A stretch of 56,708 nucleotides of DNA from an uncultured Bdellovibrionales bacterium (GTDB lineage: Bacteria; Patescibacteriota; Minisyncoccia; Moranbacterales; GWC2-37-73): the NCBI GenBank assembly GCA_964484505.1, contig CAZAFB010000008.1, positions 1-56,708 of the forward strand. Reading direction: 5' to 3'. Positions 813 to 54,491 of this stretch are shown one piece after another. Positions within the stretch are counted from its first letter, which is position 1; the number at the start of each line of letters is the position of its first letter. Below the pieces are notes generated by a model. It was not told where the DNA came from. It searched no databases and worked only from the letters and a program-made list of their open reading frames with translations. The position numbers and the translations under genes are program-made.

Positions 813-3800
813 ATGTCTCAAGAAAAAAAGACCCTCAAAGTGAAGGAGTCCTATTCTCCTTCGTCGTCGCTATCGCGTCGAAAGTTTTTCAAGAAACAGC
901 TTATGGTCTCGCTGCCGAATCTCATCGAGGCGCAGATCGACTCGTACAAATGGGTGCTCGACAAGGGCATCAAGGAACTTCTGGACGAGGTTAATCCGAT
1001 CGGTGATTTCACTGGCAAGGACTTGGAACTCTCCATCGTTGATTACTATCTCGACGAACCCAAGTATGACGAATCTACAGCAAGGAATAAGAACATCTCA
1101 TATGAAGCGCCGCTTCGCGCCAAAGCAAAACTGACAATCAAGAAAACCGGCGAAGTGAAAGAGCAGGAAATATATCTCGGTGACTTCCCGGTGATGACCG
1201 AACGCGGAACATTCGTGATCAACGGTGTGGAACGCGTGGTAGTAAGTCAGCTGATTCGCAGTTCTGGAGTTTTCTTCAACATGGAATACCAGCGCGGCAA
1301 GAAGCTGTTCGGAGCGAAAATTATTCCGAACCGCGGCGCATGGTTGGAAATCGATACTGCACTTGATGGTGTGGTTTCCGTGCGTATCGACAGAAAACGC
1401 AAAGTGCCTATAACGGCTCTCTTGCGTGCTTTTGGTATGCAAAAAGATGAAGAAATTTTGGCTGCTTTCTCCGATATTGATAATGGCGAGGTTAAATTCA
1501 TTGAGACAACCCTTTCCAAAGATATCACCAAAAACCAAGGTGAAGGATATAAGGAAATATATAAGCGTATTCGCCCAGGAGATTTGGCAACTGAAGAAAA
1601 TGCCAAACAATTGGTGGAGTCCATGTTCTTCAATTTTGAAAAATATGATTTCGGAAGCGTGGGGCGATATCGCTTGAACCAACGCTTGGATGTGGATCGT
1701 GCAGACACCGAAGAGAACCGTGTTTTGCGCATGGATGATTTGATTCTGATCATCAAAGAAATTATCCGCCTCAACAATGATCCGACCTCGATTGCTGACG
1801 ATATTGATCACTTGGGCAATCGTCGTGTGCGTGGAGTTGGTGAGCTCATTCAGAACAAGCTGCGCATCGGTATGGCTCGCATGGCTCGTAATATCAAAGA
1901 TCGTATGAGTACTTGCGATGTAGCGACTGTGGTTCCAGGACAATTGATCAACTCACGTCCAGTAGCTGCTGCAATCAAAGAATTTTTCTCAAGTTCTCAG
2001 TTATCTCAGTTCATGGACCAAGTTAATCCTTTGGCTGAATTGGAACATAAGCGCCGTCTGTCTGCAATGGGTCCAGGGGGTCTTACGCGTGAACGCGCAG
2101 GCTTTGAAGTGCGTGATGTTCACCATTCACATTATGGTCGCATTTGTCCAGTGGAAACCCCGGAAGGTCCGAACATAGGTTTGGTGGGACACATGTCCAC
2201 ATATGCTCGTGTCAATGAATTCGGCTTTTTGGAAACTCCATATATCAAAGTGTTGACTTTCATGCCGTGTGATAGCAAGGATTTGGAAAACCGTATTTTG
2301 GCGGAAGATATTTCTGGCGTGGGCAAAGCAGGTGAAAAAATCACCGCTGATATAGCCAAAAAACTTGCTAAGTCTGGTAACAAAGATGTTCGCATCAAAC
2401 CATATGTGACTCGCGAAGTGGAATACATCAATGCGACCGTGGAAGATCGCAACATCATTGGTCATGCTTGCATCGACATGGACGAGCACTACAACATCAC
2501 GGAAGATTTCGTGGAAGCTCGCGTGAAAGGACATCCGGAAATGATCGAAGCGCAAAACCTTACTTTCCTAGACGTTAGTGCCAAGCAATGTATCTCGGTA
2601 GCAACCTCGCTGATTCCATTTTTGGAACACGACGATGCCAACCGTGCTCTCATGGGTTCGAACATGCAACGTCAGGCAGTGCCTTGTATCGTGCCGCAAT
2701 CGCCGATTGTGGGAACTGGTATTGAAGACAAAGCTGCCGGAGATTCCGGTCAAGTTGTGCTTGCCGCCAACGACGGAGAAGTGATTGAAGTGGACGCAGC
2801 ACACATCGTGGTTAAAGAGCAAGCGCCTGCCGGAGTGAAAAAAGACCATATTAAGCGCGAATATGTTCTGCAAAGCTTTCAAAAATCCAACGCTTTCACC
2901 AGCATGAGCCAGGCGCCGCGTGTGACCAAAGGACAAATTGTCAAGAAAGGTGACCTGCTTGCCGACGGTGCAGCTACGGACAATGGAGAACTTGCGCTGG
3001 GGCAAAACATGGTTGTGGCTTTCATTCCTTGGGATGGATATAACTTCGAAGACGCGATTATCCTTTCGGAAAAATTGCTTCATGAAGATCGTTATAGCTC
3101 GATTCATATTGAAGATTTCTCGATCGACGTACGCGACACCAAATTGGGAAGCGAAGTTGTGACTCGTGATATTCCGAACATCGGCGAAGAAAGACTCAAA
3201 AACCTTGATGAAACCGGAATTATCCGCATCGGTGCGGAAGTTTCATCGGGCGATATTTTGGTAGGTAAAATTACCCCGAAAGGCGAAGGAGATCTGACAC
3301 CGGAAGAAAGATTGCTTCGCGCGATCTTTGGTGAGAAATCAAAGGATGTCAAAGACTCTTCGCTCTATCTGCCGCATGGCGAACACGGAAAAATCGTGGA
3401 CATCAAAATTCTTTCCCGCGAGCAAGGTGACAAATTACCGACAGGCGTGATCAAGCAAATCCAAGTTTCAATGGCGCAGCTTCGCAAAGTGTCAGTGGGT
3501 GACAAACTTGCCGGACGTCACGGAAACAAAGGTGTGATCTCACGCATCGCGCCAGTTGAGGATATGCCATATCTGCCGGACGGAACTCCAGTTGATGTGA
3601 TTCTCAATCCATTGGGCGTGGCTAGCCGTATGAATATCGGTCAGATTTTGGAAACTCATCTCGGTTGGGCGGGATTGAAACTCGGATACAAAGCAGCAAC
3701 GCCGGTACTCGATGGCGTTACGGAAGACCAGATCAAAGAAGAATTGCGCGCAGCAGGACTTCCTGAAAGCGGCAAGGTTCGTTTGATCGATGGAAAGACT

Positions 3801-9865: not shown

Positions 9866-9925
9866 GGGGTATACTATTGCAGTGATAATGCACTAGTGAT
9901 AGAATAACAGCAGTTGAGTTTGTAA

Positions 9926-9947
9926 CGTTAAAAAGTTTATAACGTTT
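9926..9947 (+). repeat. Left 22-bp direct repeat flanking the ORF6N gene (TAACGTT family)
   Basis: CGTTAAAAAGTTTATAACGTTT, identical to 10546-10567. Confidence 0.9.
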
Positions 9948-9971
9948 ATAACGAAAGTGCAGGGTAAAAAT

Positions 9972-14141: not shown

Positions 14142-14238
14142 GCGACTCGAATGATACGAATATGCACCCGAATGACTCGAATGAAATTTGGTGTCGATAT
14201 TCGTAACATTAGAGTGATTATTGGTAAATTAGAGTCGC
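14142..14238. repeat. Periodic quasi-palindromic intergenic element (CGAAT/ATTCG family)
   Basis: Terminal IR GCGACTC/GAGTCGC; left arm has four CGAAT units, right arm ATTCG/ATTAG/ATTGG. Confidence 0.8.
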
Positions 14239-17276: not shown

Positions 17277-17363
17277 CGTTATAACGTTATAACGTTTTTA
17301 ACGTTTATAACGTTTTCTATTCGAGTTCTTTTAACGTTATAAACTTTATAAACGTTATGAACG
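17277..17363. repeat. TAACGTT-family periodic element (gene-free site)
   Basis: About eight 8-9-nt TAACGTT units; 17333-17347 is the reverse complement of the AAAGTTTATAACGTT core of the ORF6N flanks. Confidence 0.85.
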
Positions 17364-18174: not shown

Positions 18175-18257
18175 CCCGAATCTTCGCGAATTATTTCTCG
18201 AATAATCACGAATGATTAGGGAATATTAGCGAATTTATTAGTGATGATTCGCGATTT
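18175..18257. repeat. CGAAT/ATTAG periodic element
   Basis: Four CGAAT units, then ATTAG/ATTCG units. Confidence 0.8.
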
Positions 18258-18864: not shown

Positions 18865-18956
18865 AATCGCGAATTTGCACGAATTGTTCACGAATGATCG
18901 CTAATAGATCCTTGATTCGTGAATATTAGTGCTATATTCGTGAATATTAGTGATTT
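18865..18956. repeat. CGAAT/ATTAG periodic element in the rpsF leader
   Basis: CACGAAT units and a duplicated ATTCGTGAATATTAGTG. Confidence 0.8.
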
Positions 18957-30549: not shown

Positions 30550-30550
30550 A

Positions 30551-30674
30551 GAACCACTTATTATCACATGATTACAATGATTTCACTGATTGTGTTTCTT
30601 GATTTATTATCATGTGTAATCAGCCCGCCATCCGCCAACTGGCGGAGGCGGAAATCAGTGCAAATCAGTGGTTC
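30551..30674. mobile_element. MITE-like element, copy 1 (GAACCAC...GTGGTTC)
   Basis: Terminal IR GAACCACT(G/T)ATT / AATCAGTGGTTC; nested CCGCCATCCGCCAACTGGCGGAGGCGG at 30625-30651. Confidence 0.75.
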
Positions 30675-31132
30675 TATAGCAGAAGCAATAAGATTGCGAT
30701 TGAACAGAAGATAATATCATTAACGGCATTGCGCAGGGTCCAATCATAGCGTGAGTCACCTTTCGGATAAGGATGGATCCATGCATGAAAGTCAAAAAGT
30801 TTTTTAAGAAAGTTGAAATGCAGTTTCCAGTAAAGCACGGTGAAAAGATCGGGAAGCATGGAGAAGAACATTCCGATCAGGATATTTCTGGCAATTTCCA
30901 GAGGGGGCATTGCAATGGCTATATAAAATATAACAATGCTGCAGCCTAGCAAGAGATCAATCGCAACTTTCCACCAAGTGCTGCGAACCGTGGAAGCTCG
31001 TCCCAGATATTCTCCGTGACGGAAAGTGTCAAGCGTGTAATGCAAAGCTATTGCAAGGGGAATCAGCAATAAAGGGCTGTGCACATATTTGCCAAGGGCA
31101 GCACCTGTGAGGGCGTGGGTAGTTAAGATCAT
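30674..31132 (-). CDS. Membrane protein, putative metal-dependent hydrolase (YdjM-like His/Asp pattern)
   Basis: MILTTHALTG...LHYTLDTFRH...MLPDL...FHAWIH, several TM helices; start moved to ATG 31132. Confidence 0.7.
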   Translation of the reverse strand: MILTTHALTGAALGKYVHSPLLLIPLAIALHYTLDTFRHGEYLGRASTVRSTWWKVAIDLLLGCSIVIFYIAIAMPPLEIARNILIGMFFSMLPDLFTVLYWKLHFNFLKKLFDFHAWIHPYPKGDSRYDWTLRNAVNDIIFCSIAILLLLL

Positions 31133-31144
31133 AAAAATAAATAT

Positions 31145-31261
31145 GAACCACTGATTATCACATGAAAGCACGTGATTTCACTGATAAGAAATTCAATCAT
31201 GTGTAATCAGTCCGCCATCCGCCAACTGGCGGAGGCGGAAATCAGAGTTAATCAGTGGTTC
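31145..31261. mobile_element. MITE-like element, copy 2
   Basis: GAACCACTGATTATCACATGA...AATCAGTGGTTC with the same nested palindrome at 31212-31238. Confidence 0.75.
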
Positions 31262-31269
31262 TTGCATCT

Positions 31270-33662: not shown

Positions 33663-33669
33663 CAAATCA

Positions 33670-33778
33670 GAACCACTGATTATCACATGAGCACACATGA
33701 TTTCACTGAAATAAGTATAAAAAATAAATGCACCACAATCACGTGTAATCAGGATAATCACGTGGTAATCAGTGGTTC
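33670..33778. mobile_element. MITE-like element, copy 3 (no nested palindrome)
   Basis: GAACCACTGATTATCACATGA...AATCAGTGGTTC. Confidence 0.75.
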
Positions 33779-33786
33779 TGAAATAT

Positions 33787-34953
33787 ATGAAAATAGGAAT
33801 TGATGCCAGGACAATTTTGAATCCTGAAAAGGGAGACGCGATCGGCGTAGGGCATTATACCTATCAACTGATCCGTCATCTGCTCAAAAACGATACGGAA
33901 AACGAGTACGTCATTTTCTTTGATTTTCGTGTGCGTGAAAAGGATGTGAAAAAATTTACCAAGCCTAATGTGAAAATCAAATTCTATCCTTTTTCCGATT
34001 ACAAAAAATATATGCCGGGAGTATATAATGAAATTCTTGGCGCAGCTACTTTGCAGAAAGAAAAGCTTGATGTGTTGCATACGACGTCTCCGATGAGTCG
34101 CATCCCGCAATCATACACAGGAAAAACAATTGTTACTTTTCATGACATGGGAATGTTTGCGGTGGAAAAATATTATCCGGCACTTCGCCGTACACGCGCG
34201 AAAGTATTGTCGCGCATGATGGCAAAAAAGGCGGATCGCATAATTGCCGTATCGGAAGCTATCAAGAAAGAGATCGAACAATATCTTGAAGGTACGAATG
34301 GGAAAACGGATATTGTGCGCAGTGGAATCGATGCGAGATTTTTTCAAGATCCTGAGGATGGCAAGAAAGCATTGGAAAAATTCGGTATCAAGAAAAAATA
34401 TATTTTGTTTTTGGGAACACTTGAGCATTCCAAAAACATCGGCAGACTTTTGGAAGCTTTCGCCAAATTCAAGCAAAAGGAAACACAAGGCGGCAGCGAT
34501 AATTTCGAGTACCAATTGGTGCTTGCCGGCAAGCGTGGACATGACAGTGAATTTTTCAAGAAGAAAGCACAAGATTTGCAAATATCCAAAGACGTTGTTT
34601 TCACGGGATATGTTGTTGGTGATGAATTGGTGCCGCTGTTCAAAGGTGCAGAATTTTTCGTGATGCCTTCATTGTACGAAGGTTTCGGCATGACCGCCTT
34701 GGAAGCATTTGCAACCAAAACACCTTCGATTTTGGGCAAAATACCGACATTGGAAGAAATTGCGGGAGACGCGGCATATTTTGTTGATCCGAAAAGCACT
34801 GAGGAGATCGCGGAAGCTATCGGAAAATTTGCCCATGATGAAAACCTGAGGGAATCATATAGACAAAAAGGAATCGAAAGAGTCAAAGGATTTGATTGGG
34901 ACAAAACAGCGAAAGAGACACTAGAAATTTATAGGCAAGTTGCAGGAAAATAG
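33787..34953 (+). CDS. Glycosyltransferase family 4 (GT-B)
   Basis: MKIGIDAR, GVGHYT, TFHD, LFLGTLEHSKN, MPSLYEGFGMTALEA, FDWDKTAKET. Confidence 0.93.
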   Translation: MKIGIDARTILNPEKGDAIGVGHYTYQLIRHLLKNDTENEYVIFFDFRVREKDVKKFTKPNVKIKFYPFSDYKKYMPGVYNEILGAATLQKEKLDVLHTTSPMSRIPQSYTGKTIVTFHDMGMFAVEKYYPALRRTRAKVLSRMMAKKADRIIAVSEAIKKEIEQYLEGTNGKTDIVRSGIDARFFQDPEDGKKALEKFGIKKKYILFLGTLEHSKNIGRLLEAFAKFKQKETQGGSDNFEYQLVLAGKRGHDSEFFKKKAQDLQISKDVVFTGYVVGDELVPLFKGAEFFVMPSLYEGFGMTALEAFATKTPSILGKIPTLEEIAGDAAYFVDPKSTEEIAEAIGKFAHDENLRESYRQKGIERVKGFDWDKTAKETLEIYRQVAGK

Positions 34954-34978
34954 AATAAGATATATATTAAAAATGGAA

Positions 34979-35287
34979 AAGCGATGATGGAGATATCACT
35001 CCATCGCCCCGTTGAAATGTTCACTTTGTGAATTTCACGGGGCAAGCTGTGCGAAGAAAAGGCAAGCCGCCTTCGTCAAGACTACGGCGAGCCGCAGTAG
35101 AACGCATCGGGCAAGCCCGTAATAGCTGTAATTAAGTCGTGAAGCTCACAACTTGAATCTTGAAGTGAAAGTTTCAAGCTTTATGTTTCAAGTTTCACGA
35201 GAATTAAGGTGGTACCACGCCCAGATCACAGTCGCTCCCGAGCGATGTGACACGCGTCCTTATGCATTTTTTGCGTAGGGATTTTTT
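34979..35287 (+). ncRNA. T-box riboswitch (Ile, AUC specifier) with ultrashort Stem I and intrinsic terminator
   Basis: GATGGAG-ATATCA-CTCCATC; Stem II with AAGAA/AGTAGAA S-turn; IIA/B CGGGCAAGCCCG; antiterminator TAAGG-TGGTACC-ACGC / GCGT-CCTTA; terminator 35257-35287. Confidence 0.92.
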
Positions 35288-35295
35288 GTTTATCT

Positions 35296-35387
35296 CTACG
35301 AATTACGAATAGGTACGAAAGTACGAATGTGCAAAGATATTTATTATTTGTATATTTGTAAATTTGTAATTGATTTGTAATTTGTAG
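35296..35387. repeat. TACGAAT/ATTTGTA periodic element between the T-box and ileS
   Basis: Four TACGAA units, then five ATTTGTA-like units. Confidence 0.8.
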
Positions 35388-35397
35388 AACTAAAAAT

Positions 35398-38322
35398 ATG
35401 TTTAAGAAAGTAGATCAAAAACAACCATTTCCAAAAATGGAGGAAGAAATTCTGAAGTTTTGGGATGAAAATAGGGTGTTTGAAAAGTCGGTCAGTAATC
35501 GTGAGGGCGCCAAAAAATACAGTTTTTATGACGGTCCTCCGTTTGCAACCGGGTTGCCGCACTATGGCCATTTAGTGGCAAGTACAATGAAAGATGTTGT
35601 GCCACGCTATTGGACGATGCGCGGTTATCAAGTTGAGCGAAAATGGGGCTGGGATTGTCATGGCTTGCCGATCGAAAATATTGCAGAAAAGGCATTGGGA
35701 ATTTCCCATAAAAAAGACATTGAAAAAATGGGAGTGGATAAGTTCAACGAATTTTGTCGCACAACCGTCTTGAAATATGTTGATGAATGGAAAATTGTCA
35801 TCAATCGTCTCGGCCGCTGGGCTGACATGGAAAATAGTTATAAGACGATGGATCTTTCGTATATGGAATCGGTGTGGTGGGTGTTTAAACAACTTTGGGA
35901 CAAAGGATTGATTTACGAAGGGTATCGTTCAATGCATGTATGTACGCGCTGCGAAACTACACTTTCCCAACAAGAAGTAAGTGAAGGATACAAGGATATA
36001 AAGGACTTATCCGCAATTGCCAAATTCGAACTGATAGACGAACCGGGGACGTTTGTTTTGGCATGGACGACAACGCCATGGACATTGATTGGTAATGTGG
36101 CGTTAGCAGTTGGGAAGGATATTGAATATGCAAAAATCAGAACCACTGATTCTCACATGAAAACACATGATTGCACTGAGCATTTTATTATCGCAAAGGA
36201 AAGGTTAGTTGAACTTTTTGCGGATAAAAAATATGAAGTAATTGATAAATTTAAAGGCAGTGATTTAATTGATAAAAACTACAAACCACTCTTTGATTAT
36301 TACCAAAACAAAGGTCTGGAAAATGAGGAAAACGGCTGGAAAATATATGCTGCGGATTTTGTGACTACGGAAGAAGGAACGGGCGTGGTACATATTGCGC
36401 CAGCTTTTGGTGAAGATGACCTGAATCTAAGTTATCAATATAAATTGCCATTCATTCAACACGTTGGCATGGATGGACTTATCAAGAAAGAGGTGGGAGA
36501 ATTTGCGGGACTCAGCGTGAAACCATTGGAAAACCATATGAGCACAGATATTGAAATTATCAAATATTTGGCTCATAGTAATCTGCTGTTTTTTAAGGAA
36601 AAATACGAACACAGCTATCCACATTGCTGGAGATGTGATACGCCTCTAATCAATTACGCGACATCTTCGTGGTTTGTCAAAGTTACTGATATTAAAGAAA
36701 AAGCACTGGAATTGGCCAAGGAAATCAATTGGTCACCGGCACATATGAAAGAAGGACGTTTCGGCAATTGGCTTGAGGGAGCTCGCGATTGGTCAATTTC
36801 GCGCCAACGTTACTGGGCTTCTGTTATGCCGATTTGGAGGTGTGAATGTGGCGAAGTGAAAGTGATGGGGTCGGTGGCGGAGCTCGAAGAATTGAGTGGT
36901 AAAAAAATAACCGATCTGCACAAACATGTTGTCGATGGAATCACGTTGAAGTGCGATAAATGCAGTGGTGAGATGAAAAGAATTCCTGATGTCTTGGATA
37001 CATGGTTTGATAGCGGCTCGATGCCGTATGCACAAGTGCATTATCCCTTCGAGAACAAAGAGAAGTTTGACGCGGGATTCCCGGCGGAGTTTATTGCGGA
37101 AGGAGTGGATCAGACGCGCGCATGGTTCTATTACCTGCATATTATTGCGTCTGCAATCAAGGAGAAGCCGGCTTTTAAGAATGTTATTGTGAATGGAATT
37201 GTGTTGGCTGAGGACGGGAAGAAGATGAGTAAGAGGCTGCAGAATTATCCCGACCCGAGTTTTGTGTTTGAAAAATATGGCGCCGATGCTCTGCGATTTT
37301 ATCTGATGTCGTCGCCGGTTGTTGCAGCTGATAATTTGAATTTCAAGGAAAATGATGTAGCTGATTTGATTCGTGGTATGTTCCGCATGCTTTGGAATTC
37401 ATATTCTTTTTTTGTGATGTATGCAAACATCGATGGCTTTCAGTCGTCAATAGCGACAAGCAACAAGCGACAAGCGACAAGTCTTCTCGACAGATGGATT
37501 TTGTCGGAACTCAACGTTCTTATTAATGATGTGAATCGTCATATGGAGGCGTATGAATTGCATAAGGCCGCAAGGTTATTTCCAAAATTCATTGATAATC
37601 TTTCCAATTGGTATATTCGCAGATCGCGTAAACGTTTTTGGAAATCGGAAAATGATACGGATAAGAACGAGGCTTATGCGACCTTGCATCATGTGCTGGT
37701 GACACTTTCGCAACTCATGGCGCCGTTTACACCGTTTGTGGCAGAAGAAATTTATAGAAATCTTACAGGGGAAGAATCTGTCCATCTCTCTGATTTTCCT
37801 GCGGTTGATGAAAAGATGATTGATGAGAAATTGAACGAACAAATGAACGCGGCGCGGGAAATTGTGAGCGCAGGTCTTCAAAAACGCGCGGAGGCGAAAA
37901 TAAAAGTGCGTCAGCCTTTGGCGAGCGCAACTGTTTTTGTGGAGCTCTCCGAAGAATTGAAGGAGATTGTGAAGGAAGAACTGAATGTAAAAACGATAGT
38001 TTTGGGAGATTTGGAAAATAGGGGGGATTTGGGAAATGTGGTGTTGAACACGGAAATTACTGAAGAGTTGAAGTTGGAGGGGCAGGCGAGGGAGGTGATT
38101 CGCGCAATTCAGGAGATGCGAAAATCAGCCGGCTTTGAGGTTGACAATCGCATAAATATATGCTATAATGGATTGTCAAAAGTTTTTGGAAAGTTCGGCG
38201 ATTTGATTGCCAAAGAAACGCTTTCCCAAGCCCTAAGTGAAGGAAAAATGGCAGAAGCTGATTTGGAAAAGGATTTTACGATTGATAATGAAAGCGTTAT
38301 AATAGGAATAAAGAGAGTTTAA
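35398..38322 (+). CDS. ileS: Isoleucine--tRNA ligase (type 2)
   Basis: DGPPFATGLPHYGH, GWDCHGLP, WTTTPWTL, DWSISRQRYW, GVDQTRAWFY, KMSKR. Confidence 0.99.
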   Translation: MFKKVDQKQPFPKMEEEILKFWDENRVFEKSVSNREGAKKYSFYDGPPFATGLPHYGHLVASTMKDVVPRYWTMRGYQVERKWGWDCHGLPIENIAEKALGISHKKDIEKMGVDKFNEFCRTTVLKYVDEWKIVINRLGRWADMENSYKTMDLSYMESVWWVFKQLWDKGLIYEGYRSMHVCTRCETTLSQQEVSEGYKDIKDLSAIAKFELIDEPGTFVLAWTTTPWTLIGNVALAVGKDIEYAKIRTTDSHMKTHDCTEHFIIAKERLVELFADKKYEVIDKFKGSDLIDKNYKPLFDYYQNKGLENEENGWKIYAADFVTTEEGTGVVHIAPAFGEDDLNLSYQYKLPFIQHVGMDGLIKKEVGEFAGLSVKPLENHMSTDIEIIKYLAHSNLLFFKEKYEHSYPHCWRCDTPLINYATSSWFVKVTDIKEKALELAKEINWSPAHMKEGRFGNWLEGARDWSISRQRYWASVMPIWRCECGEVKVMGSVAELEELSGKKITDLHKHVVDGITLKCDKCSGEMKRIPDVLDTWFDSGSMPYAQVHYPFENKEKFDAGFPAEFIAEGVDQTRAWFYYLHIIASAIKEKPAFKNVIVNGIVLAEDGKKMSKRLQNYPDPSFVFEKYGADALRFYLMSSPVVAADNLNFKENDVADLIRGMFRMLWNSYSFFVMYANIDGFQSSIATSNKRQATSLLDRWILSELNVLINDVNRHMEAYELHKAARLFPKFIDNLSNWYIRRSRKRFWKSENDTDKNEAYATLHHVLVTLSQLMAPFTPFVAEEIYRNLTGEESVHLSDFPAVDEKMIDEKLNEQMNAAREIVSAGLQKRAEAKIKVRQPLASATVFVELSEELKEIVKEELNVKTIVLGDLENRGDLGNVVLNTEITEELKLEGQAREVIRAIQEMRKSAGFEVDNRINICYNGLSKVFGKFGDLIAKETLSQALSEGKMAEADLEKDFTIDNESVIIGIKRV
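36140..36179 (+). repeat. In-frame left arm of the GAACCAC MITE in ileS
   Basis: GAACCACTGATTCTCACATGAAAACACATGATTGCACTGA; encodes RTTDSHMKTHDCT. Confidence 0.85.
37452..37479 (+). repeat. In-frame heptamer array in ileS
   Basis: AGCGACA-AGCAACA-AGCGACA-AGCGACA; encodes ATSNKRQAT. Confidence 0.75.
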
Positions 38323-39793: not shown

Positions 39794-39845
39794 ATAGGAC
39801 AAGGGTAATAGGACTGATGGGACGGATAGGACGCATATGACTAAT
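39794..39845 (+). repeat. AGGAC/GGGAC periodic arm
   Basis: ATAGGAC...ATAGGACTGATGGGACGGATAGGACGCATATGACTAAT. Confidence 0.6.
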
Positions 39846-43615: not shown

Positions 43616-46600
43616 ATGAAACCAAGGGCGAATCATTTTAAGAGACATTTTTTCCTAGGCGCAAGCTTTTTCGCGATGGTTTTTTTGTTTTTTTCTCATA
43701 ATGCTAACGCGGCAACCATTACTTGGGATGGATCATCCTCAACTGATTGGGCTACTGCAGCAAACTGGGTTGGCGATGCGGTGCCTACCTCCACTGATGA
43801 CGTGGTTATCAATGGCAGTTATACAAATGCTCCCATCCTCAATCTTTCCGCCGGTGCGGTTACGGTAAATTCTCTCTCTGTCGGATCAAGTGCAACATCG
43901 GTGGTGACCGTTTCCAATGGAGATATCGATACCAAAAAACTTATAGTTACGGGAGATGTAACGATCGGAGCAAGCGGAACTTTGACTCACACAGCCAATT
44001 CCAGCGCTGAGACACACAGACTTTCTTTGCAGGTAGGGGGCAACATGACGATAGTTTCAGGTGGCTCAATTAGTATCAACAGCAAAGGTTATACAGGCAC
44101 AAGTGGTAATGGTCGTGGTCCAGGTGCCGGAGGGGGAGGCGATATTAATCAGCGTGGTAGTGGTGGGGGTCATGGCGGCAAGGGCGCTAGCACTACAACG
44201 CATGCAGGCGGTACCACTTATGACTCCATAACACAGCCTGCAATGATAGGTTCTTCGGGCGGAACTTGTTCTCGTGCAGCTTATGGCGGTGCTGGCGGTG
44301 GCGCTGCAAAAATTGTGGTAGGGGGAACATTAACTTTGGAAGGAGCATTGACGGCAGTGGGTGGCAATGGAATTACTGATAAGTGTTCCGGCGGTGGTTC
44401 GGGAGGAGCTATTTGGGTTGTTGCTGGAAATTTAACAGGTGCTGGATCGATTAATGCAAATGGAGGCACTTCATATAACAATGATTTAACTTCTGCCAGC
44501 GGTGGCGGTGGTGGAAGAATAGCAATTGAATATACCACAAGTTCTTTTTCTGGAGCCATTACCGCTTTTGGTAAGACCGGCTATGCCTATGGAGGTGCGG
44601 GAACAATCTATTTGAAGCAGGGAACAAACAATGGCGATCTTATTGTTGATAATAATTCAGTGGCTGGTGCGGATACGCTGCAGCTTGCCGGAACTAACTT
44701 CACTTTTGATAATGTAACAATTACGAAATCGGCAAAATATGTAATCCCGGATACTTCCAGCTTGGCAGCTTCTGTAAGTCTCTCCGCAAATTCAGTTGAC
44801 GCAACGATAACTGTTAACAGCGGTGGCTCAATGACATTACCCGCCAGTCAAAATTCTCTAGCTTATTTTTCCATAGCCAATAGCGGAACAGTCAATGTCT
44901 CGCAATCAAATTTTTCTATTTCCAACGGAACAATTACGAATAACGGAACAATAACGGGCATATCGAACTTAACTTTGTCATCAGTTACTTTCTATCAAAA
45001 CGGAACGCTTACTGGAATAACTGATCTTATTGTCGGCGCGTCATCAACTTTTGAATTTCAAAATCTTACACCCTCAACACCTTTCAATTTAAATAGCTTG
45101 ACTATTCAAAGCAGCGGAGTTTTAACGCATAAAGGAAATTCTTCAACAGAAGCGTATACTCTTAATTTGAATATTTCCGGCAATCTAGATGTGCAATCTG
45201 GCGGTTCGATTAATCTGAACAGCAAAGGTTATACAGGCACAAGTGGTAATGGTCGTGGTCCAGGTGCCGGAGGGGGAGGCGATATTAATCAGCGTGGTAG
45301 TGGTGGGGGTCATGGCGGCAAGGGCGCTAGCACTACAACGCATGCAGGCGGTACCACTTATGACTCCATAACACAGCCTGCAATGATAGGTTCTTCGGGC
45401 GGAACTTGTTCTCGTGCAGCTTATGGCGGTGCTGGCGGTGGCGCTGCAAAAATTGTGGTAGGGGGAACATTAACTTTGGAAGGAGCATTGACGGCAGTGG
45501 GTGGCAATGGAATTACTGATAAGTGTTCCGGCGGTGGTTCGGGAGGAGCTATTTGGGTTGTTGCTGGAAATTTAACAGGTGCTGGATCGATTAATGCAAA
45601 TGGAGGCACTTCATATAACAATGATTTAACTTCTGCCAGCGGTGGCGGTGGTGGAAGAATAGCAATTGAATATACCACAAGTTCTTTTTCTGGAGCCATT
45701 ACCGCTTTTGGTAAGACCGGCTATGCCTATGGAGGTGCGGGAACAATCTATTTGAAGCAGGGAACAAACAATGGCGATCTTATTGTTGATAATAATTCAG
45801 TGGCTGGTGCGGATACGCTGCAGCTTGCCGGAACTAACTTCACTTTTGATAATGTAACAATTACGAAATCGGCAAAATATGTAATCCCGGATACTTCCAG
45901 CTTGGCAGCTTCTGTAAGTCTCTCCGCAAATTCAGTTGACGCAACGATAACTGTTAACAGCGGTGGCTCAATGACATTACCCGCCAGTCAAAATTCTCTA
46001 GCTTATTTTTCCATAGCCAATAGCGGAACAGTCAATGTCTCGCAATCAAATTTTTCTATTTCCAACGGAACAATTACGAATAACGGAACAATAACGGGCA
46101 TATCGAACTTAACTTTGTCATCAGTTACTTTCTATCAAAACGGAACGCTTACTGGAATAACTGATCTTATTGTCGGCGCGTCATCAACTTTTGAATTTCA
46201 AAATCTTAACGCTTCTACGCCTTTTAATCTTAGCAATCTCACGGTCCTAAGTGGAGGAACAATAACTCACAAAGCAAATTCCTCAACAGAAACGTATACC
46301 TTGAACTTGAATATTTCAGGTGATTTTGATTTGCAATCCGGAGGAGCGATAAGTCTTAATGGTAGGGGTTATGTCGGGAAAAGTGGTACGGGATATGGTC
46401 CGGGTGCTGGTGCAGGCGGTGATTTAAATGCTTATGGCGCCGGTGGTGGATATGGAGGTAAGGGAGGAAACGGAAGAGCGGGCTTAGTTGGGGGGTCGCC
46501 GTATGGATCAATTGTACAACCTGTAAATATTGGTTCATCAGGTGGAGCAGCAACAGCAACATCAGGATCTGGCGGTGGTGCTGTAAAGATAATTGTCGGA

Positions 46601-49600
46601 GGACTTTTTAATATTAACGGAACGATTTCCGCTAATGGCACCAACGGGCTGACAAATGATAGATCCGGTGGCGGTTCCGGGGGAGGAATTTGGATTAACG
46701 CGAATACCATAGGGGGAGGGGGTTCAATTTCAGCCAATGGGGGAAACGCTTATAATACGTATGGAGCTGGAGGCGGAGGTGGTGGTCGTATTGCGGTTGA
46801 ATATCTAAGCAGTACTTTTAGCGGCACTTATTCATCTTCCGGAGGCACGGGATATAATGCCGGAAATGCCGGTACTATTCGCACAGGCTCTCTTTCTGCG
46901 GAAGTATTATCCTCCCCCTATGATTCCGGAAGTGGACAAAATGTTATTGCTAAGCTTCAATGGACGGAAACACTGCCTGCGGGTACGGATGCGAAATTTC
47001 AAATCAGAACAGCCCCTGATAATGGCGGAGCACCAGGAACCTGGACTTCTTGGATGGGTCCCAATGGTACTTCCGGAACATATTTTACCGATCCATCAGG
47101 AGGGGAGGATATTCCTGCCGCTTTGGAAGATGGCGCAAACGATCAATGGATGCAGTACAGGGTTTTGTTGAGCAGTCCCGACCTTTCAGTCAATCCGGTT
47201 GTTGGCGATGTATCATTGTTTTATGTGGTAAATCAGCCGCCTAGTTTTGATGCCACTTTTGGTACCGATGGAATCAATCTTTCACAAGTATCAAGCTCTG
47301 TCGATCCGCAATGGGGCAAGATGAAAATAGAATATGCGGTGCGCGATGTCGATACTACTTCCGGAACGGTAACTCAAAATTACGCAACCCCTTCTTTCGA
47401 ATATTCTTTCGATGGTTCCAATTGGACAGCGGTCAATTCGGCGTATGTGACATATTCCGCGCCGGCGCAAGGCGATGTCGCTGACGTTAACGGCGATGGC
47501 AAGATGGATAACAAAATGTTGGAAGGAAGCTATCTGACATATGCAGCGTATTGGAACGCTAAGTCTCAAATTCCGGAAACATATTCCGAATCCATTCGCG
47601 TAAGGATTACCCTTACTGACAATGAAATAGCCAACAGTACTGTGCAAGCTATTGGAAATATAATTAGCGTAGACACGAAAAACCCGACATTGGCCAGTGT
47701 GCCGATGCATGTGCATGCCAATTCTGTGCCTGCTTCAGTTTCATCTGATGTAACAGATGATAATTCCTTGCAGATGAGAATCGGCTTGGCAACGGATATT
47801 TCCGATGCTTCTTGGGAAAGCTATGCCGCCAGCAAACAGCTTGCGCTGGCAACCAATCCCGATATTGTCTATGCTCAATATCGCGATGCTTTTGGTAATT
47901 CCAGTGTTATTTTATCAGCTCAAACGCCTGAGCAGCCGGCGACAGTAATGATTCAGGATACTTCGAACATGCACAATGACCTTAATGAATATAGGCTTTT
48001 TGTGGCATGGAAAACGATCGCTACGCCAGAAGTGGGATTTGGTTCATATTATGTGTACCGTTCGGAAAATCAGACAGACTGGACTCATGTAGGAACCGTG
48101 AATGAAAGGCTGACCAACTATTATGGTGACAATTCCGTGCAGGGAAATGTGAATTATTATTATCGTGTAGCATCCGTAGATAGTAGCGGTGATATATCAT
48201 ATGTTTCAGCAATCGTTAACGGAGTGGCTAACGGTAATGTCGATGCGGGAGAGGGAGGCGGAGGAACGGGCGAACAACCCCCGGTAATTTCCAATGTAAC
48301 CGTGGACAATATTACGCCTACTAGCGCGCAGATAAACTGGACAACTGACGTTATAGCAACTTCCACAGTGGGATTTTCCACTCAACCTTCACATTTCGAA
48401 AATGAAGTAGGATCAGGATCCATGGTTACATCGCATAGCGTTACTTTGAGCAGTCTTACTCCCAACACTCAATATTATTTCCAAACAAAGTCGGCAAATG
48501 CTTCGAATGCTTTAGCTGTCGACACCAATGGAGGAAATGGCTATACATTTTCTACTTCAGCTGGCGACAGTACTGCTCCAATAATTTCCAATATCACAGT
48601 TGCGAATACGACTGCTTCGACCGCAACAATAACCTGGGATACCAATGAAGCTGCTACTTCCTTTGTGGAATATTCAAAAACGAATGGATTTTCCACGGGA
48701 GCGCAATTTGGAGATGTTGCGATGACCACAAGCCATAGTGTAACTGTGCCGTCTTTGGAACAAGGAACAACTTATTATTTCAAGGTCCGCTCCAAAGATG
48801 CGGCGAATAATGAAGGAATATCGGCACAAAGCAGTTTTGATACGTTAGTCAGCGGGGATGTGACATCTCCGCAAATAAGCGGTTTGTCTTCCACACCATC
48901 TTTCAATAGCGCTACCGTAACTTGGACTACCGACGAGGATGCGACATCCTATGTTGAATATGGCTCGAACACATCCTATGGTCGTATTTATGGGGACAAT
49001 AATCCGGTAAAATCACATACGGTTCAGCTTCCCTATGATCTTTCTTCCGAACAGTCATATCATTTCAGAGTCAGATCATTTGACGGTTCGTATAACGAAG
49101 CAATTTCTTCCGATAATACTTTTACGACAACTGTAAATCCGGCAGATTCCACAGCGCCGTTGATTGCTAATATCAACATCGGCACACCAGACAGGGACAG
49201 CGTGACTGTAACTTGGAATACGGATGAATCATCAACGTCATATGTCGGTTATTCCAGCGATGGGGGTGATACTTTTTCCGAGCAAGGCTACTCCACTTTA
49301 ACAACATTCCATAGCGTAACTCTGGCCGGTCTTACTCCCGGTACGACATATCTGTTGAAGATTTCCTCGGCAGATGCTTCCGGCAATAAAGCTACTGATG
49401 ACAATGCTGGTTCTTATTATCAAAGAGCAACAGCTCCCGGTCCAGTACCGCCAGTATTCAGCTCCGTATCTTCATCGAATCTGGACGAACATCGCACGAC
49501 TGTTACCTGGAGCACGGATCTCTCTTCAACTTCGCTTGTTGAATATGGTTTGGATACTAACTATGGTTCCGTAGCTGGCAAGCTCGATGATAAGACAAGC

Positions 49601-51838
49601 CATTCGGTTACTCTGGAAGGATTATTGCCAAGCACTACTTATCATTTTCGTGTGCGTTCAACGGATGAGGTAGAGGGTGTCTCCGGTGATTATACTTTCA
49701 CTACCACAGCCGCACCGGACACTCAGGGTCCGGCAATAAGCGCGATATCATCAACGAACATCAGCAAGGACGGCGCAAGGATAACATGGACAACTGATGA
49801 AAATTCCAATTCACTTGTTTCCTATGGTCAATCATCGGCATACTCTATGGTTGCTGGTGACCGCAGCACCATGGTTACTTCGCATGCTGTCGATCTGGAT
49901 CGCTTGTCTCCGAGCACAACATATCATTACCAAATTACATCCACGGATTCAGTCGGAAACACGGCAAATTCTTCAGATCAAACACTCACTACAATTGCCG
50001 ATACTTCCGATCCGGTAATTTCCGATCTGGAAGTGCGTAGCGTGTCAGAAACCGGAGCAGTCCTTTCCTGGAAGACTGATAAGCGAGCTTCCACAAAAAT
50101 AAATTATGGCGTCGATCATGATTTGGCAAGCAATTATGATGCTCAAATAATTTCAGATGTGCATATTATTTCGCTTACCGGGCTTGCTGGTGGTCAGAAA
50201 TATTATTTCAAGGCAGTTTCGGTTGATGAATATGGTAATAGTGTGGAATCAACAGAACAAACATTCACAACTCTGACTGATCCCGAGTTAAGTCATGATC
50301 CGCTGGAGAGCATAAGCGATATTCCAGATTCACCTGCTGTGCTTACTGATACGAAAGCTGTGATTGACTTTTCTACCGATCAGCGTGCGCAATGCTTTAT
50401 TGAATATGGTACTCAAGCAGGACAATATACGGAAGTTCCAATAGGGGAATCAACATATGATTCCAAACACTCCCTACATTTGGCTGGCCTTATATATCAA
50501 ACCAAATATTATTATCGAGTAACTTGTTCGGATAATTTGGATACGATCATCATGTCTGATGAACTCAGCTTTACGACTCTGGAAAAGCAAGTAGGGGAAA
50601 GCGAGACTGGAGAAGAAGAGATTGCTGATCGCATAGCGCCGTCAATCAGTAATGTTTCGGTAAAAACAGTGGCAAGTGAAAGCACGGTAATTTCTTGGGA
50701 TACGGATGAAAACGCCAACAGCATGATACGTTTTGGCACCAGTTCAACTTATGGCAAGATGACTGGTGATGATAGCGTCAATAAAGATTCAGCCAACTAT
50801 GTTCAAAAACACGAAGTGACCGTGGACAGGTTGGTTCCCGGAACAAAATATTATTTCGAAGCAATGTCCTTGGATACAAATGGGAATATCGGAAAATCTT
50901 CTCAGGGAACGTTTACCACAGAAGGAACATCGACCATATCATCGATAGTTTCAGAATCCAAAGAATTGGGCAAGGCGACAGTAATGTGGCTAACACAAGT
51001 TCCTGCCGATACTTACCTTGAATACGGCGTTTCCACTAAATATGGTTCTGAAATAAAACAAAGTTCGCTTACCAAGGAACATCAAGTGGAGCTTTCTGGT
51101 CTTAAAGGCGGTTCGATATATCATTTTCGAATTAAAGGAACTGATGCTGAGGGAAATATTTATACTTCGGCTGATTCCACTTTTGCGCCAAAATCTCCGC
51201 CAAAGGTTCGTGATTTGCAAGCAGTGCATGTTTCTGAACATTCAGCAACAATCACTTTTACAGCAGATGTTCCAGTGACAGCAACCGTAAACTATCAGGA
51301 CACACGCAAGGAGAAAGAGGCGCAAAGCAAAGGTAATCCGAATTTGGGAACCAAGCAGGAGATAATCTTGAATGATTTGGAATCAGGGCTTACTTACTCG
51401 TATGCCGTAACAGTGCGCGACGAGAATGGTCTGGAGACAATATCTGAAGCGAAAACTTTTGTTACCGGCAAGGACACTACGGCGCCGCTTATCGATCAGG
51501 TAAAAACCGAATCTGCTCTGACTCAAAACGACAAAGTGCAATCAATTATCAGCTGGAAAACTGATGAGCTGGCGACAGGAGCTCTTGTGTATCGGGAAGG
51601 TAAAAATGGCGAGGAAAAAGAAATTAAAGTTTCGGACGTTTTGTCACAACAGCATGTGGCGGTGGTTACTTCATTCAATCAGGGTTCAGTTTATTATTTT
51701 AGGGTAAAAGCTGTCGATGCTTCCGATAATGAGGCGGTTTCTTCAGATTATGCATTATTAACACCTAAAACAAAGGAGAATATAGTGCAGGTAATAATTT
51801 CTAATTTCTATGATATATTCAGATGGACAAGGAGATGA
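43616..51838 (+). CDS. Giant secreted surface protein/adhesin (2740 aa): Gly-rich beta repeats plus about 12-13 FN3-like domains
   Basis: Signal peptide ending ANA-A; GGGHGGKG / GSGGAIW / GGGGRIA repeats; DVNGDGKMD Ca-binding-like loop; repeated P.IS.V...A.I.W.TD...S.V.YG...H.V.L..L.P.T.Y.F. Confidence 0.93.
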   Translation: MKPRANHFKRHFFLGASFFAMVFLFFSHNANAATITWDGSSSTDWATAANWVGDAVPTSTDDVVINGSYTNAPILNLSAGAVTVNSLSVGSSATSVVTVSNGDIDTKKLIVTGDVTIGASGTLTHTANSSAETHRLSLQVGGNMTIVSGGSISINSKGYTGTSGNGRGPGAGGGGDINQRGSGGGHGGKGASTTTHAGGTTYDSITQPAMIGSSGGTCSRAAYGGAGGGAAKIVVGGTLTLEGALTAVGGNGITDKCSGGGSGGAIWVVAGNLTGAGSINANGGTSYNNDLTSASGGGGGRIAIEYTTSSFSGAITAFGKTGYAYGGAGTIYLKQGTNNGDLIVDNNSVAGADTLQLAGTNFTFDNVTITKSAKYVIPDTSSLAASVSLSANSVDATITVNSGGSMTLPASQNSLAYFSIANSGTVNVSQSNFSISNGTITNNGTITGISNLTLSSVTFYQNGTLTGITDLIVGASSTFEFQNLTPSTPFNLNSLTIQSSGVLTHKGNSSTEAYTLNLNISGNLDVQSGGSINLNSKGYTGTSGNGRGPGAGGGGDINQRGSGGGHGGKGASTTTHAGGTTYDSITQPAMIGSSGGTCSRAAYGGAGGGAAKIVVGGTLTLEGALTAVGGNGITDKCSGGGSGGAIWVVAGNLTGAGSINANGGTSYNNDLTSASGGGGGRIAIEYTTSSFSGAITAFGKTGYAYGGAGTIYLKQGTNNGDLIVDNNSVAGADTLQLAGTNFTFDNVTITKSAKYVIPDTSSLAASVSLSANSVDATITVNSGGSMTLPASQNSLAYFSIANSGTVNVSQSNFSISNGTITNNGTITGISNLTLSSVTFYQNGTLTGITDLIVGASSTFEFQNLNASTPFNLSNLTVLSGGTITHKANSSTETYTLNLNISGDFDLQSGGAISLNGRGYVGKSGTGYGPGAGAGGDLNAYGAGGGYGGKGGNGRAGLVGGSPYGSIVQPVNIGSSGGAATATSGSGGGAVKIIVGGLFNINGTISANGTNGLTNDRSGGGSGGGIWINANTIGGGGSISANGGNAYNTYGAGGGGGGRIAVEYLSSTFSGTYSSSGGTGYNAGNAGTIRTGSLSAEVLSSPYDSGSGQNVIAKLQWTETLPAGTDAKFQIRTAPDNGGAPGTWTSWMGPNGTSGTYFTDPSGGEDIPAALEDGANDQWMQYRVLLSSPDLSVNPVVGDVSLFYVVNQPPSFDATFGTDGINLSQVSSSVDPQWGKMKIEYAVRDVDTTSGTVTQNYATPSFEYSFDGSNWTAVNSAYVTYSAPAQGDVADVNGDGKMDNKMLEGSYLTYAAYWNAKSQIPETYSESIRVRITLTDNEIANSTVQAIGNIISVDTKNPTLASVPMHVHANSVPASVSSDVTDDNSLQMRIGLATDISDASWESYAASKQLALATNPDIVYAQYRDAFGNSSVILSAQTPEQPATVMIQDTSNMHNDLNEYRLFVAWKTIATPEVGFGSYYVYRSENQTDWTHVGTVNERLTNYYGDNSVQGNVNYYYRVASVDSSGDISYVSAIVNGVANGNVDAGEGGGGTGEQPPVISNVTVDNITPTSAQINWTTDVIATSTVGFSTQPSHFENEVGSGSMVTSHSVTLSSLTPNTQYYFQTKSANASNALAVDTNGGNGYTFSTSAGDSTAPIISNITVANTTASTATITWDTNEAATSFVEYSKTNGFSTGAQFGDVAMTTSHSVTVPSLEQGTTYYFKVRSKDAANNEGISAQSSFDTLVSGDVTSPQISGLSSTPSFNSATVTWTTDEDATSYVEYGSNTSYGRIYGDNNPVKSHTVQLPYDLSSEQSYHFRVRSFDGSYNEAISSDNTFTTTVNPADSTAPLIANINIGTPDRDSVTVTWNTDESSTSYVGYSSDGGDTFSEQGYSTLTTFHSVTLAGLTPGTTYLLKISSADASGNKATDDNAGSYYQRATAPGPVPPVFSSVSSSNLDEHRTTVTWSTDLSSTSLVEYGLDTNYGSVAGKLDDKTSHSVTLEGLLPSTTYHFRVRSTDEVEGVSGDYTFTTTAAPDTQGPAISAISSTNISKDGARITWTTDENSNSLVSYGQSSAYSMVAGDRSTMVTSHAVDLDRLSPSTTYHYQITSTDSVGNTANSSDQTLTTIADTSDPVISDLEVRSVSETGAVLSWKTDKRASTKINYGVDHDLASNYDAQIISDVHIISLTGLAGGQKYYFKAVSVDEYGNSVESTEQTFTTLTDPELSHDPLESISDIPDSPAVLTDTKAVIDFSTDQRAQCFIEYGTQAGQYTEVPIGESTYDSKHSLHLAGLIYQTKYYYRVTCSDNLDTIIMSDELSFTTLEKQVGESETGEEEIADRIAPSISNVSVKTVASESTVISWDTDENANSMIRFGTSSTYGKMTGDDSVNKDSANYVQKHEVTVDRLVPGTKYYFEAMSLDTNGNIGKSSQGTFTTEGTSTISSIVSESKELGKATVMWLTQVPADTYLEYGVSTKYGSEIKQSSLTKEHQVELSGLKGGSIYHFRIKGTDAEGNIYTSADSTFAPKSPPKVRDLQAVHVSEHSATITFTADVPVTATVNYQDTRKEKEAQSKGNPNLGTKQEIILNDLESGLTYSYAVTVRDENGLETISEAKTFVTGKDTTAPLIDQVKTESALTQNDKVQSIISWKTDELATGALVYREGKNGEEKEIKVSDVLSQQHVAVVTSFNQGSVYYFRVKAVDASDNEAVSSDYALLTPKTKENIVQVIISNFYDIFRWTRR
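44078..46208 (+). repeat. Tandem duplication, period 1140 bp, with a 991-bp identical block
   Basis: 44078-45068 matches 45218-46208 on line-by-line reading; antisense ORFs 44281-44559 and 45421-45699 are identical. Confidence 0.95.
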
Positions 51839-54413: not shown

Positions 54414-54491
54414 TGAATTATGAAGTAAAAATTAGGAATTAAGATAAAAGGAATTGCATCTTTCATAATTCATAAATCATAATTCATAATT
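54412..54491. repeat. ATGAATT/AATTCAT heptamer quasi-palindromic element
   Basis: Left arm ATGAATTATGAA...AGGAATT, right arm TTCATAATTCATAAATCATAATTCATAATT. Confidence 0.75.

Follow-up and report, generated by a model that had tools for sequence, protein, structure and literature searches.

A predicted isoleucine T-box leader with single-copy peripheral hairpins upstream of ileS in a Patescibacteria genome

The window analysed in this study, a stretch of 56,708 nucleotides from contig CAZAFB010000008.1 (assembly GCA_964484505.1) of a low-GC, Moranbacteria-like member of the Patescibacteria, contains a leader at positions 34975-35290 that is placed between the gene of a GT4 glycosyltransferase (33772-34953) and ileS (35398-38322, forward strand, as are all elements of the leader described below). 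The latter, which would be the regulated gene, encodes an isoleucyl-tRNA synthetase (IleRS) of 974 amino acids with the Pfam domains tRNA-synt_1, Anticodon_1 and DUF5915, whose closest homologues (64-76% identical) are found in metagenome-assembled genomes of Candidatus Moranbacteria/Moraniibacteriota, Paceibacteria and other Patescibacteria. The exact leader was recovered in at least 14 sequencing runs, which belong to six studies that sampled biofilm, activated sludge, biogas and wastewater. Its segment 34980-35288 is predicted to be a T-box of the ultrashort-Stem-I class that senses isoleucine (specifier AUC) and attenuates transcription, and it carries four hairpins (H1-H4) that are probably single-copy peripheral elaborations of this known RNA and not copies of a mobile repeat.

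The anatomy of this T-box is complete, comprising a 7-bp Stem I, the S-turn strands, the IIA/B core, the T-box sequence and an 11-bp terminator. It begins with the AGC 5' strand of a basal helix (the C helix, which covaries in relatives and takes part in the fold of a three-way junction) and a GAU linker (34980-34985), the latter corresponding to the loop of a kink-turn (K-turn) in relatives. The ultrashort Stem I (34986-35005, GAUGGAG-AUAUCA-CUCCAUC) presents in its loop the specifier AUC (34995-34997) followed by the purine A34998, in agreement with the identity of the downstream gene. Past H1, the 3' strand of the K-turn-like base and the C helix is formed by AA and GCU (35044-35048). It is succeeded by Stem II (35049-35107), which consists of a base helix GUGCG/CGCAU with 10-13 compensatory changes per pair among relatives, the S-turn strands GAAGAAAA (35053-35060) and AGUAGAA (35096-35102), and a distal part that includes H2. 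The Stem IIA hairpin and IIA/B pseudoknot core CGGGCAAGCCCGUAAUAGC (35108-35126) is invariant in 128 leaders. In the T-box sequence AAUUAAGGUGGUACCACGC (35202-35220, with AAUUAAGGUGGUACCACG at 35202-35219), the 5' strands of the antiterminator helices A1 (35205-35209) and A2 (35217-35220) flank the 7-nt bulge UGGUACC (35210-35216), which is of the form UGGN-ACC and competent to pair with the NCCA 3' end of a tRNA. The 3' strands of A2 (GCGU) and A1 (CCUUA) at 35254-35262 double as 5' arm of an intrinsic terminator (35256-35288; 11-bp stem and 5-nt loop, called at 35256-35282 and followed by a U tract; -15.0 kcal/mol, z -7.2), and antiterminator and terminator are thus mutually exclusive. All motifs that are invariant in the family (AUCA, GAAGAA, AGUAGAAC, the IIA/B core and GGUGGUACC) are intact. 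The assignment to the ultrashort-Stem-I class is reflected in the location of the specifier in a terminal loop, the lack of a distal platform, the presence of Stem II and the IIA/B core and the fit to a covariance model of the class.

By analogy with the known mechanism of T-boxes, uncharged tRNA-Ile(GAU) would bind to the AUC specifier and to the bulge, where its 3' NCCA would pair with UGGU. This pairing would keep the antiterminator closed (A1 UAAGG/CCUUA, A2 ACGC/GCGU) and block the terminator at 35256-35288, permitting RNA polymerase to read into ileS, whereas H1-H4 would project from solvent-exposed tips and junctions without disturbing the process. In the window and in its low-GC relatives the leader ends in a stem followed by a U tract, which argues for transcriptional attenuation rather than a translational read-out by sequestration of the ribosome-binding site. 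A candidate promoter (TTTATA-17-TAGAAT, 34928-34956), a match in a consensus scan, overlaps with its second hexamer the stop codon of the upstream glycosyltransferase gene. The 56.7-kb window holds no tRNA gene that would supply the discriminator base of tRNA-Ile for comparison with the bulge.

To place the leader in its family, relatives were gathered as ileS loci from genomes and by one metagenome scan with the 30-nt IIA/B core, which served as anchor; 128 leaders carry this anchor and 78 could be cleanly parsed. With its 290 nt, the leader of the window is the longest of the parsed set. A covariance model (R1) was built on 23 relatives, excluding the window, from a MAFFT alignment reduced from 33 leaders (406 columns). 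RNAalifold alone missed Stem I, Stem III and A2; Stem I and A2 were added by hand, and Stem III, which lacks a common register across relatives, was left unpaired. In the 23-relative alignment the ATC specifier and both strands of the S-turn are invariant and the A following the specifier is nearly so. The family structure pairs 90.7% of cells and shows compensatory changes in 22 of 29 pairs, a result that none of 500 shuffles equalled. R1 recognises the window with 59.3 bits (E 5e-16), or 64.5 bits (E 7e-20) with filters off, and held-out relatives with 70-115 bits, and its match at 34981-35007 aligns the AUCA of Stem I. With default filters the 3' end of the match is mis-set inside H3, and with filters off the alignment splits at H1 and Stem I is wrongly matched to the tip of this hairpin, which we read as a measure of how strongly H1 disrupts the family model. 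In the covariance-model alignment, the conserved motifs remain contiguous around the inserts.

Three of the four hairpins had been described in a first-pass annotation as repeats inserted at tolerated positions of the T-box. All three are present and each folds better than most or all of 200 shuffled sequences. Their assigned locations, H1 between Stem I and the 3' strand of the K-turn-like base, H2 in distal Stem II and H3 at Stem III, proved correct, as did the proposal that these peripheral sites spare the conserved core. Their proposed nature fared differently, as detailed below for each hairpin.

H1 (35006-35043; -19.3 kcal/mol, z -5.2, none of 200 shuffles folding as well) follows the 3' strand of Stem I, which ends at 35005, and precedes AA-GCU (35044-35048), and would convert the base of Stem I into a three-way junction. 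The interval between Stem I and the S-turn, which has a median length of 9 nt (GAGCCUCCG-like), extends to 46 nt in the window, the largest value among the 78 leaders, and about 70 relatives show 9-10 nt at this site. An arm is found there in only a few low-GC leaders (L025 and L024 with 22 additional nucleotides, L003 with 19, L155 and L132), all of different sequence, and it is missing in L085, L137, L109, L006, L007, L029 and L008. H1 is a true lineage-specific insert that interrupts the K-turn. This interruption is evident in the non-bulged strand GA-GC, which comes right after Stem I in 64 of the 70 insert-free leaders but in none of the four that have a genuine insert. The window has retained the 5' strand AGC-GAU-GA, and the 3' GA-GC is replaced by UC-H1-AA-GCU. 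Together, the AGC/GCU helix, Stem I and H1 fold as three-way junction with a z-score of -5.8. Strain variation in this region includes the pair of changes A35023G and T35029C, which is compensatory within H1 (A-U to G-C), and the replacement of A35003 by G, which can form a G-U pair with U34988. We also considered H1 as the outer portion of a long Stem I of the canonical type and rejected this reading, since the specifier sits in the terminal loop in all relatives.

The interrupted base resembles the k-junction of the thiamine pyrophosphate (TPP) riboswitch (PMC4005666) in that a third helix emanates from the non-bulged strand of a K-turn whose C helix and 3-nt loop (GAU) are kept. However, the k-junction preserves both G-A pairs and has its third helix on the side facing the loop, where it separates A1n from the C helix (PMC4005666). 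H1 instead separates Stem I, the NC helix, from the AA in front of the C-helix strand, and the 5' GA of the window can pair with UC to extend Stem I. We have thus rejected an assignment of H1 as k-junction, as it is found on the NC-helix side of the AA and position 2n would be an A instead of a G. In the leader L132, the GA is kept after Stem I and a small hairpin (GUAAA/UUUAC) is located between this GA and the C-helix strand, an arrangement that may correspond to a true k-junction topology.

A different picture emerges for H2 (35061-35093, first delimited as 35067-35089; -13.6 kcal/mol, z -2.4, 7 of 200 shuffles folding as well), which forms the distal module of Stem II. Its sequence CGCCUUCGUCAAGACUACGGCG matches CGCCUUCGCCAAGGCUUCGGCG in L006, CGCCUACGCUAAGGCUUCGGCG in L008 and CGCCUCCGCUAAAGCUUCGGAG in L025, and similar sequences are present in L029 and L119, the five relatives sharing the consensus CGCCUNCGCYAAGGCUUCGGCG. 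An inner pair, read by eye, is U-A in the window and C-G in the relatives. In the metagenomes X3, X15 and X18, contigs of another species match the leader at 35045-35136 only, which is Stem II with H2 and the core. The length of Stem II, which ranges from 11 to 116 nt in the family, is with 44 nt unremarkable. Since L085, L109, L007 and L003 have a minimal Stem II, the H2 module is specific to a clade. Its conservation and the compensatory changes mark H2 as a native part of Stem II and not an insert, at odds with its initial description.

H3 (35137-35200; -22.5 kcal/mol, z -3.6, 0 of 200 shuffles) is a Stem III grown to a hairpin of 64 nt, with about four 7-nt units on each arm that pair CTTGAAN with TTTCAAG (Tandem Repeats Finder period 7, 4.1 copies). 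Relative to R1 it appears as insert of 46 nt, and it extends the distance between core and T-box sequence, which in the family covers 19-96 nt with a median of 39, to 81 nt. Its base UCG/CGA and its purine-rich flanks are common to the Stem III of relatives. H3 is the expansion of a native, obligatory helix rather than an insert at a site without a helix. Wherever Stem III is long in the low-GC clade it is periodic, and the unit differs between lineages: at a lag of 7 in the window, GTTTGTG in four copies paired with CTACAAAC-like units in L085, AGCTTYTY paired with four copies of CTAAGAAG in L109 and L137, an ATACAT-like unit in L024 and two copies of TTCATGAA in L008. Among 2000 shuffles, the observed periodicity was reached by 7 for the window, by none for L085, L109 and L137, by 5 for L024 and by 9 for L008. 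Aperiodic are the short Stem IIIs, such a short stem being found in L025, L003, L006, L007 and L029, and the long one of the actinobacterial leader L126. We presume that a periodic Stem III may grow, most likely by local duplication or slippage of units within an existing hairpin.

The fourth hairpin, H4 (35221-35253), which was missing from the first-pass annotation, caps the antiterminator helix A2 with 33 nt, compared to a median loop length of 19.5 nt, and is an insert of 24 nt relative to R1 (z -1.8). L085, L008 and L137 contain mutually homologous A2 inserts (GCCNCGCCGAAUCUGC..GCAGAGAAGGCGGG-like) that are unrelated to H4 and may constitute a conserved module of this sub-clade. Stem and loop of Stem III are known to be variable, and T-boxes with short Stem I often have insertions in Stem III and helix A2 (PMC7583486).

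The origin of the hairpins as copies of a dispersed repeat, as had been assumed, can be judged by their copy number. Within the window, H1-H4 have no further copies (no 16-mer at up to 2 mismatches, no 20-mer at up to 3); a general repeat finder returned chance-level matches only, and the longest match found by blastn-short at word size 7 comprised 12 nt (E at least 0.16). When Logan contigs of whole metagenome assemblies were compared with positions 34900-35450 at a likeness of 80% or better, the depth over 35006-35279 equalled the genome baseline (16.4 in X1, 7.13 in X5, 8.33 in X9), with one contig spanning all hairpins. A built-in positive control was provided by the segments 35293-35329 and 35346-35400 past the terminator, which reach 5-10 times baseline; numerous contigs with a depth like that of the genome share no more than these 37-45 nt with the leader and have both ends loose. 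At this likeness H1-H4 are single copy, and they do not belong to a dispersed palindromic repeat akin to miniature inverted-repeat transposable elements (MITE), repetitive extragenic palindromic (REP) sequences or Rickettsia palindromic elements (RPE).

The multi-copy segments are the arms of a 94-nt periodic hairpin (35295-35388; -37.3 kcal/mol, z -8.0), in which four copies of TACGAA pair with five of TTTGTAA via G-U pairs. It is thus this hairpin, located between terminator and start codon and outside the T-box fold, that constitutes the dispersed element of the leader. It ends 9 nt 5' of the ileS AUG, and no obvious Shine-Dalgarno sequence is visible. Multiple copies are also found for a palindromic family (AGAACCACTGATT...), which is present in three full copies and a half copy in frame in ileS (36131-36179), so that the premise of the earlier proposal, a dispersed repeat inserted in frame in a protein, holds for this gene. 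The family, AGAACCACTGATTATCACATGA ... AATCAGTGGTTCT, is located at 30550-30680, 31144-31262, 33669-33781 and 36131-36179. The half copy encodes amino acids 245-261 (AKIRTTDSHMKTHDCTE), a loop of variable length with a 9-residue gap in L001 and L025.

Intergenic tandem arrays with periods of 7-11 nt are found at 9918-9953, 14144-14184, 17279-17363, 18209-18254, 18870-18953, 39808-39841 and 54415-54491. Several are hairpin-paired, many directly precede a start codon and the unit changes from array to array (such as TTATAACGT and TTCATAA), which suggests a genome-wide tendency to periodic growth. A further array (AGCGACA in 4.3 copies, 91% match) lies inside the coding region of ileS at 37452-37481. 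Elsewhere, a direct repeat of 300 nt (44057-44356 and 45197-45496, 98% identical and 1140 nt apart) resides in an 8.2-kb open reading frame (ORF, 43616-51838) that looks like a giant protein with repeat domains.

Comparison with relatives illustrates the pace at which the tips of the leader change. L109 and L137, whose IleRS segments are 90% identical on the protein and 81% on the nucleotide level, differ by indels of about 55 nt at the tip of Stem II and 28 nt in the A2 loop. L085 (IleRS 72-79% identical) contains neither H1 nor H2, and in L025, whose IleRS is the closest among the relatives (74-76%), Stem III measures 17 nt and A2 is free of an insert. In one metagenome contig from X20 an unrelated 22-mer takes the place of H3. 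Since the tips tolerate changes in length, hairpins appear to be gained, lost and replaced quickly in the low-GC Patescibacteria clade. The expectation that the hairpins would be absent from sister leaders is thus borne out for H1 in most relatives and for the long H3 in L025, L003, L006, L007 and L029, but not for the conserved H2. Similarly, what stands of the proposed repeat insertion at tolerated sites is their tolerance, with lineage-specific tips and block indels; repeat copies were not found, either by k-mers and blastn in the window or by depth in the assemblies at a likeness of 80% or better, and H2 is native. L001 (~2100-2176) and L002 (~2900-3001) show the same synteny of GT4 gene and ileS without a T-box leader, with both genes nearly abutting, and the riboswitch has therefore been gained or lost among close relatives. 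In L137, L003 and L048 an extra ORF is found between the terminator of the T-box and ileS, so that the riboswitch of these relatives may regulate a short operon or have another gene than ileS as its first target.

How do these observations bear on the origin of the hairpins? Were they copies of a mobile palindromic repeat that has inserted throughout the genome, including proteins, and survived in the T-box at fold-neutral sites, one would find support in the AGAACCACTGATT... family with its half copy in ileS, in the multi-copy arms of the post-terminator hairpin and in relatives where H1, H3 and H4 are absent or different. Yet H1-H4 match neither a repeat family nor anything else in the window, they are found at baseline depth in unbroken contigs while true repeats nearby are 5-10 times as deep, H2 is conserved among relatives and, on reading the sequence, the borders of the hairpins show no target-site duplications. 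This explanation is largely refuted for copies with an identity of 80% or more, and we regard it overall as improbable. Still less credible is the leader as decaying, non-functional relic that gathers junk. Its exceptional length, the disrupted GA signature of the K-turn and the lack of any T-box in the syntenic loci of L001 and L002 would be in line with decay, but every invariant motif is intact, all covarying helices pair, terminator and antiterminator exclude each other precisely, the inserts are confined to helix tips or junctions and the strain variation at 35003 (A to G, giving G-U) and at 35023 with 35029 maintains pairing. A role for the hairpins as selected functional additions, which would contact tRNA-Ile, offer a platform for proteins binding double-stranded RNA or affect transcription time and pausing, appears rather unlikely. 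In its timing variant, a Stem I without contact to the tRNA elbow would gain time to capture tRNA before the terminator forms. In staphylococcal glyS T-boxes, Stem Sa is proposed to make extra contacts to tRNA. The compensatory change in H1, the recurrence of long periodic Stem IIIs in five related lineages (L085, L109, L137, L024, L008), the higher identity of this stem in L109 and L137 compared to coding DNA, the identical leader in at least 14 runs from six studies and the suggestion that inserts at Stem III and A2 might assist folding or touch the tRNA (PMC7583486) all speak in its favour. Conversely, L025 manages with a 17-nt Stem III and no A2 insert and L085 without H1 and the H2 module, the unit sequences differ wholly between lineages and share no common motif, and H3 is swapped for an unrelated 22-mer in a near relative.

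Several observations weigh against our preferred assignment of H1-H4 as single-copy peripheral elaborations of a T-box attenuator. At the gathering threshold, Rfam returned no match in the whole window, and in a local scan the T-box model RF00230 missed its gathering score (24.9 bits versus 93, E 0.0015), with a strong local match at the K-turn 5' strand and T-box core only. Because leaders of the ultrashort-Stem-I class as a whole fall below the cut-off, with 38-64 bits, this failure is a property of the model and does not speak against membership. Interrupted is also the K-turn, which T-boxes with a Stem II are believed to need (PMC7583486), and our assignment presupposes that the three-way junction positions Stem II correctly. 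In addition, the strain variant with the compensatory pair in H1 carries a change of AA to TT at 35015-35016 that breaks two weak pairs of this hairpin. The identity of the Stem III array in L109 and L137, at about 88% above the 81% of coding DNA, could result from selection rather than neutral turnover. Single copy refers to Logan contigs at a likeness of 80% or more, leaving room for copies that are more diverged or were dropped in assembly. Finally, the metatranscriptome contigs consistent with transcription of the expanded leader and readthrough, one spanning 35071-35221 without mismatches and including H3 and a second spanning 35314-35464, have a depth of about 3, too sparse to locate a termination site, and could originate from contaminating DNA. 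Going beyond the preferred assignment, we tentatively entertain the idea that in Moranbacteria-like Patescibacteria non-coding hairpins grow, in a lineage-specific process, by units of 7-8 nt on both arms, which yields true expansion segments even in a riboswitch, that the K-turn has been functionally replaced by a three-way junction and that the periodic Stem III is maybe maintained as timing element or platform for proteins.

Collectively, our analysis documents T-boxes in Patescibacteria, also referred to as candidate phyla radiation, that are overlooked by standard Rfam annotation; literature searches combining T-box with either name of the group returned no reports. It extends the ultrashort-Stem-I class of ileS leaders to a transcription-terminating form in a very different phylum, and the relatives with and without each hairpin offer a natural mutagenesis series for the tolerance of T-box parts to insertions. 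The idea of an invasion of a riboswitch by mobile repeats is corrected, with the dispersed element reaching no further than the border of the T-box fold, and the lineage-specific periodic Stem IIIs hint at a way of growing hairpins in reduced genomes that is as yet uncharacterised. The natural interruption of a K-turn by an extra arm bears on a question described as open in a review of the field (PMC7583486).

The closest known counterparts of the described leader are the ileS T-boxes of Actinobacteria such as Mycobacterium tuberculosis and Nocardia farcinica (PDB 6UFG and 6UFM, cited after PMC7583486), which share a Stem I of 5-7 bp that exposes the AUC specifier in its terminal loop, the S-turn strands GAAGAA and AGUAGAA, the T-box bulge and a nearly identical IIA/B core (CGGG...GCCCGU.A.AGC). 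Both groups are retrieved with a single 30-nt core pattern and fit a single covariance model, and insertions in Stem III and helix A2 have been described in the actinobacterial class as well (PMC7583486). In contrast to these translationally controlled leaders, the window belongs to a low-GC Patescibacteria genome, its T-box ends in a terminator with a U tract instead of sequestering a ribosome-binding site, the non-bulged strand of its K-turn is interrupted by a 38-nt arm and its Stem III is built of periodic 7-nt units. What is new relative to the known class is thus the occurrence in Patescibacteria of an ileS T-box with ultrashort Stem I that acts on transcription, has its K-turn interrupted and builds Stem III from periodic units. 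With the canonical T-box of Firmicutes (RF00230) the leader has in common a K-turn-like base, the specifier followed by a purine, the S-turn, the F-box or IIA/B region, the 14-nt T-box sequence and the competing antiterminator and terminator helices, but it lacks the long Stem I of that class, with its internal specifier loop, its AG bulge and its T-loop platform at the distal end. RPEs are dispersed, multi-copy palindromic repeats that occur within genes, both in frame in those of proteins and in those of RNAs. They resemble the AGAACCACTGATT... family in ileS, where hairpin DNA has likewise survived at positions tolerated by the host, whereas each of H1-H4 exists in a single copy and shows no sequence relationship with the dispersed families of the window. 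A further parallel is offered by the expansion segments of ribosomal RNA, which grow in a lineage-specific manner at solvent-exposed helix tips and leave the functional core unchanged; the elaborations described here differ in that they are found in a bacterial riboswitch and are built of short tandem units mirrored on both arms.

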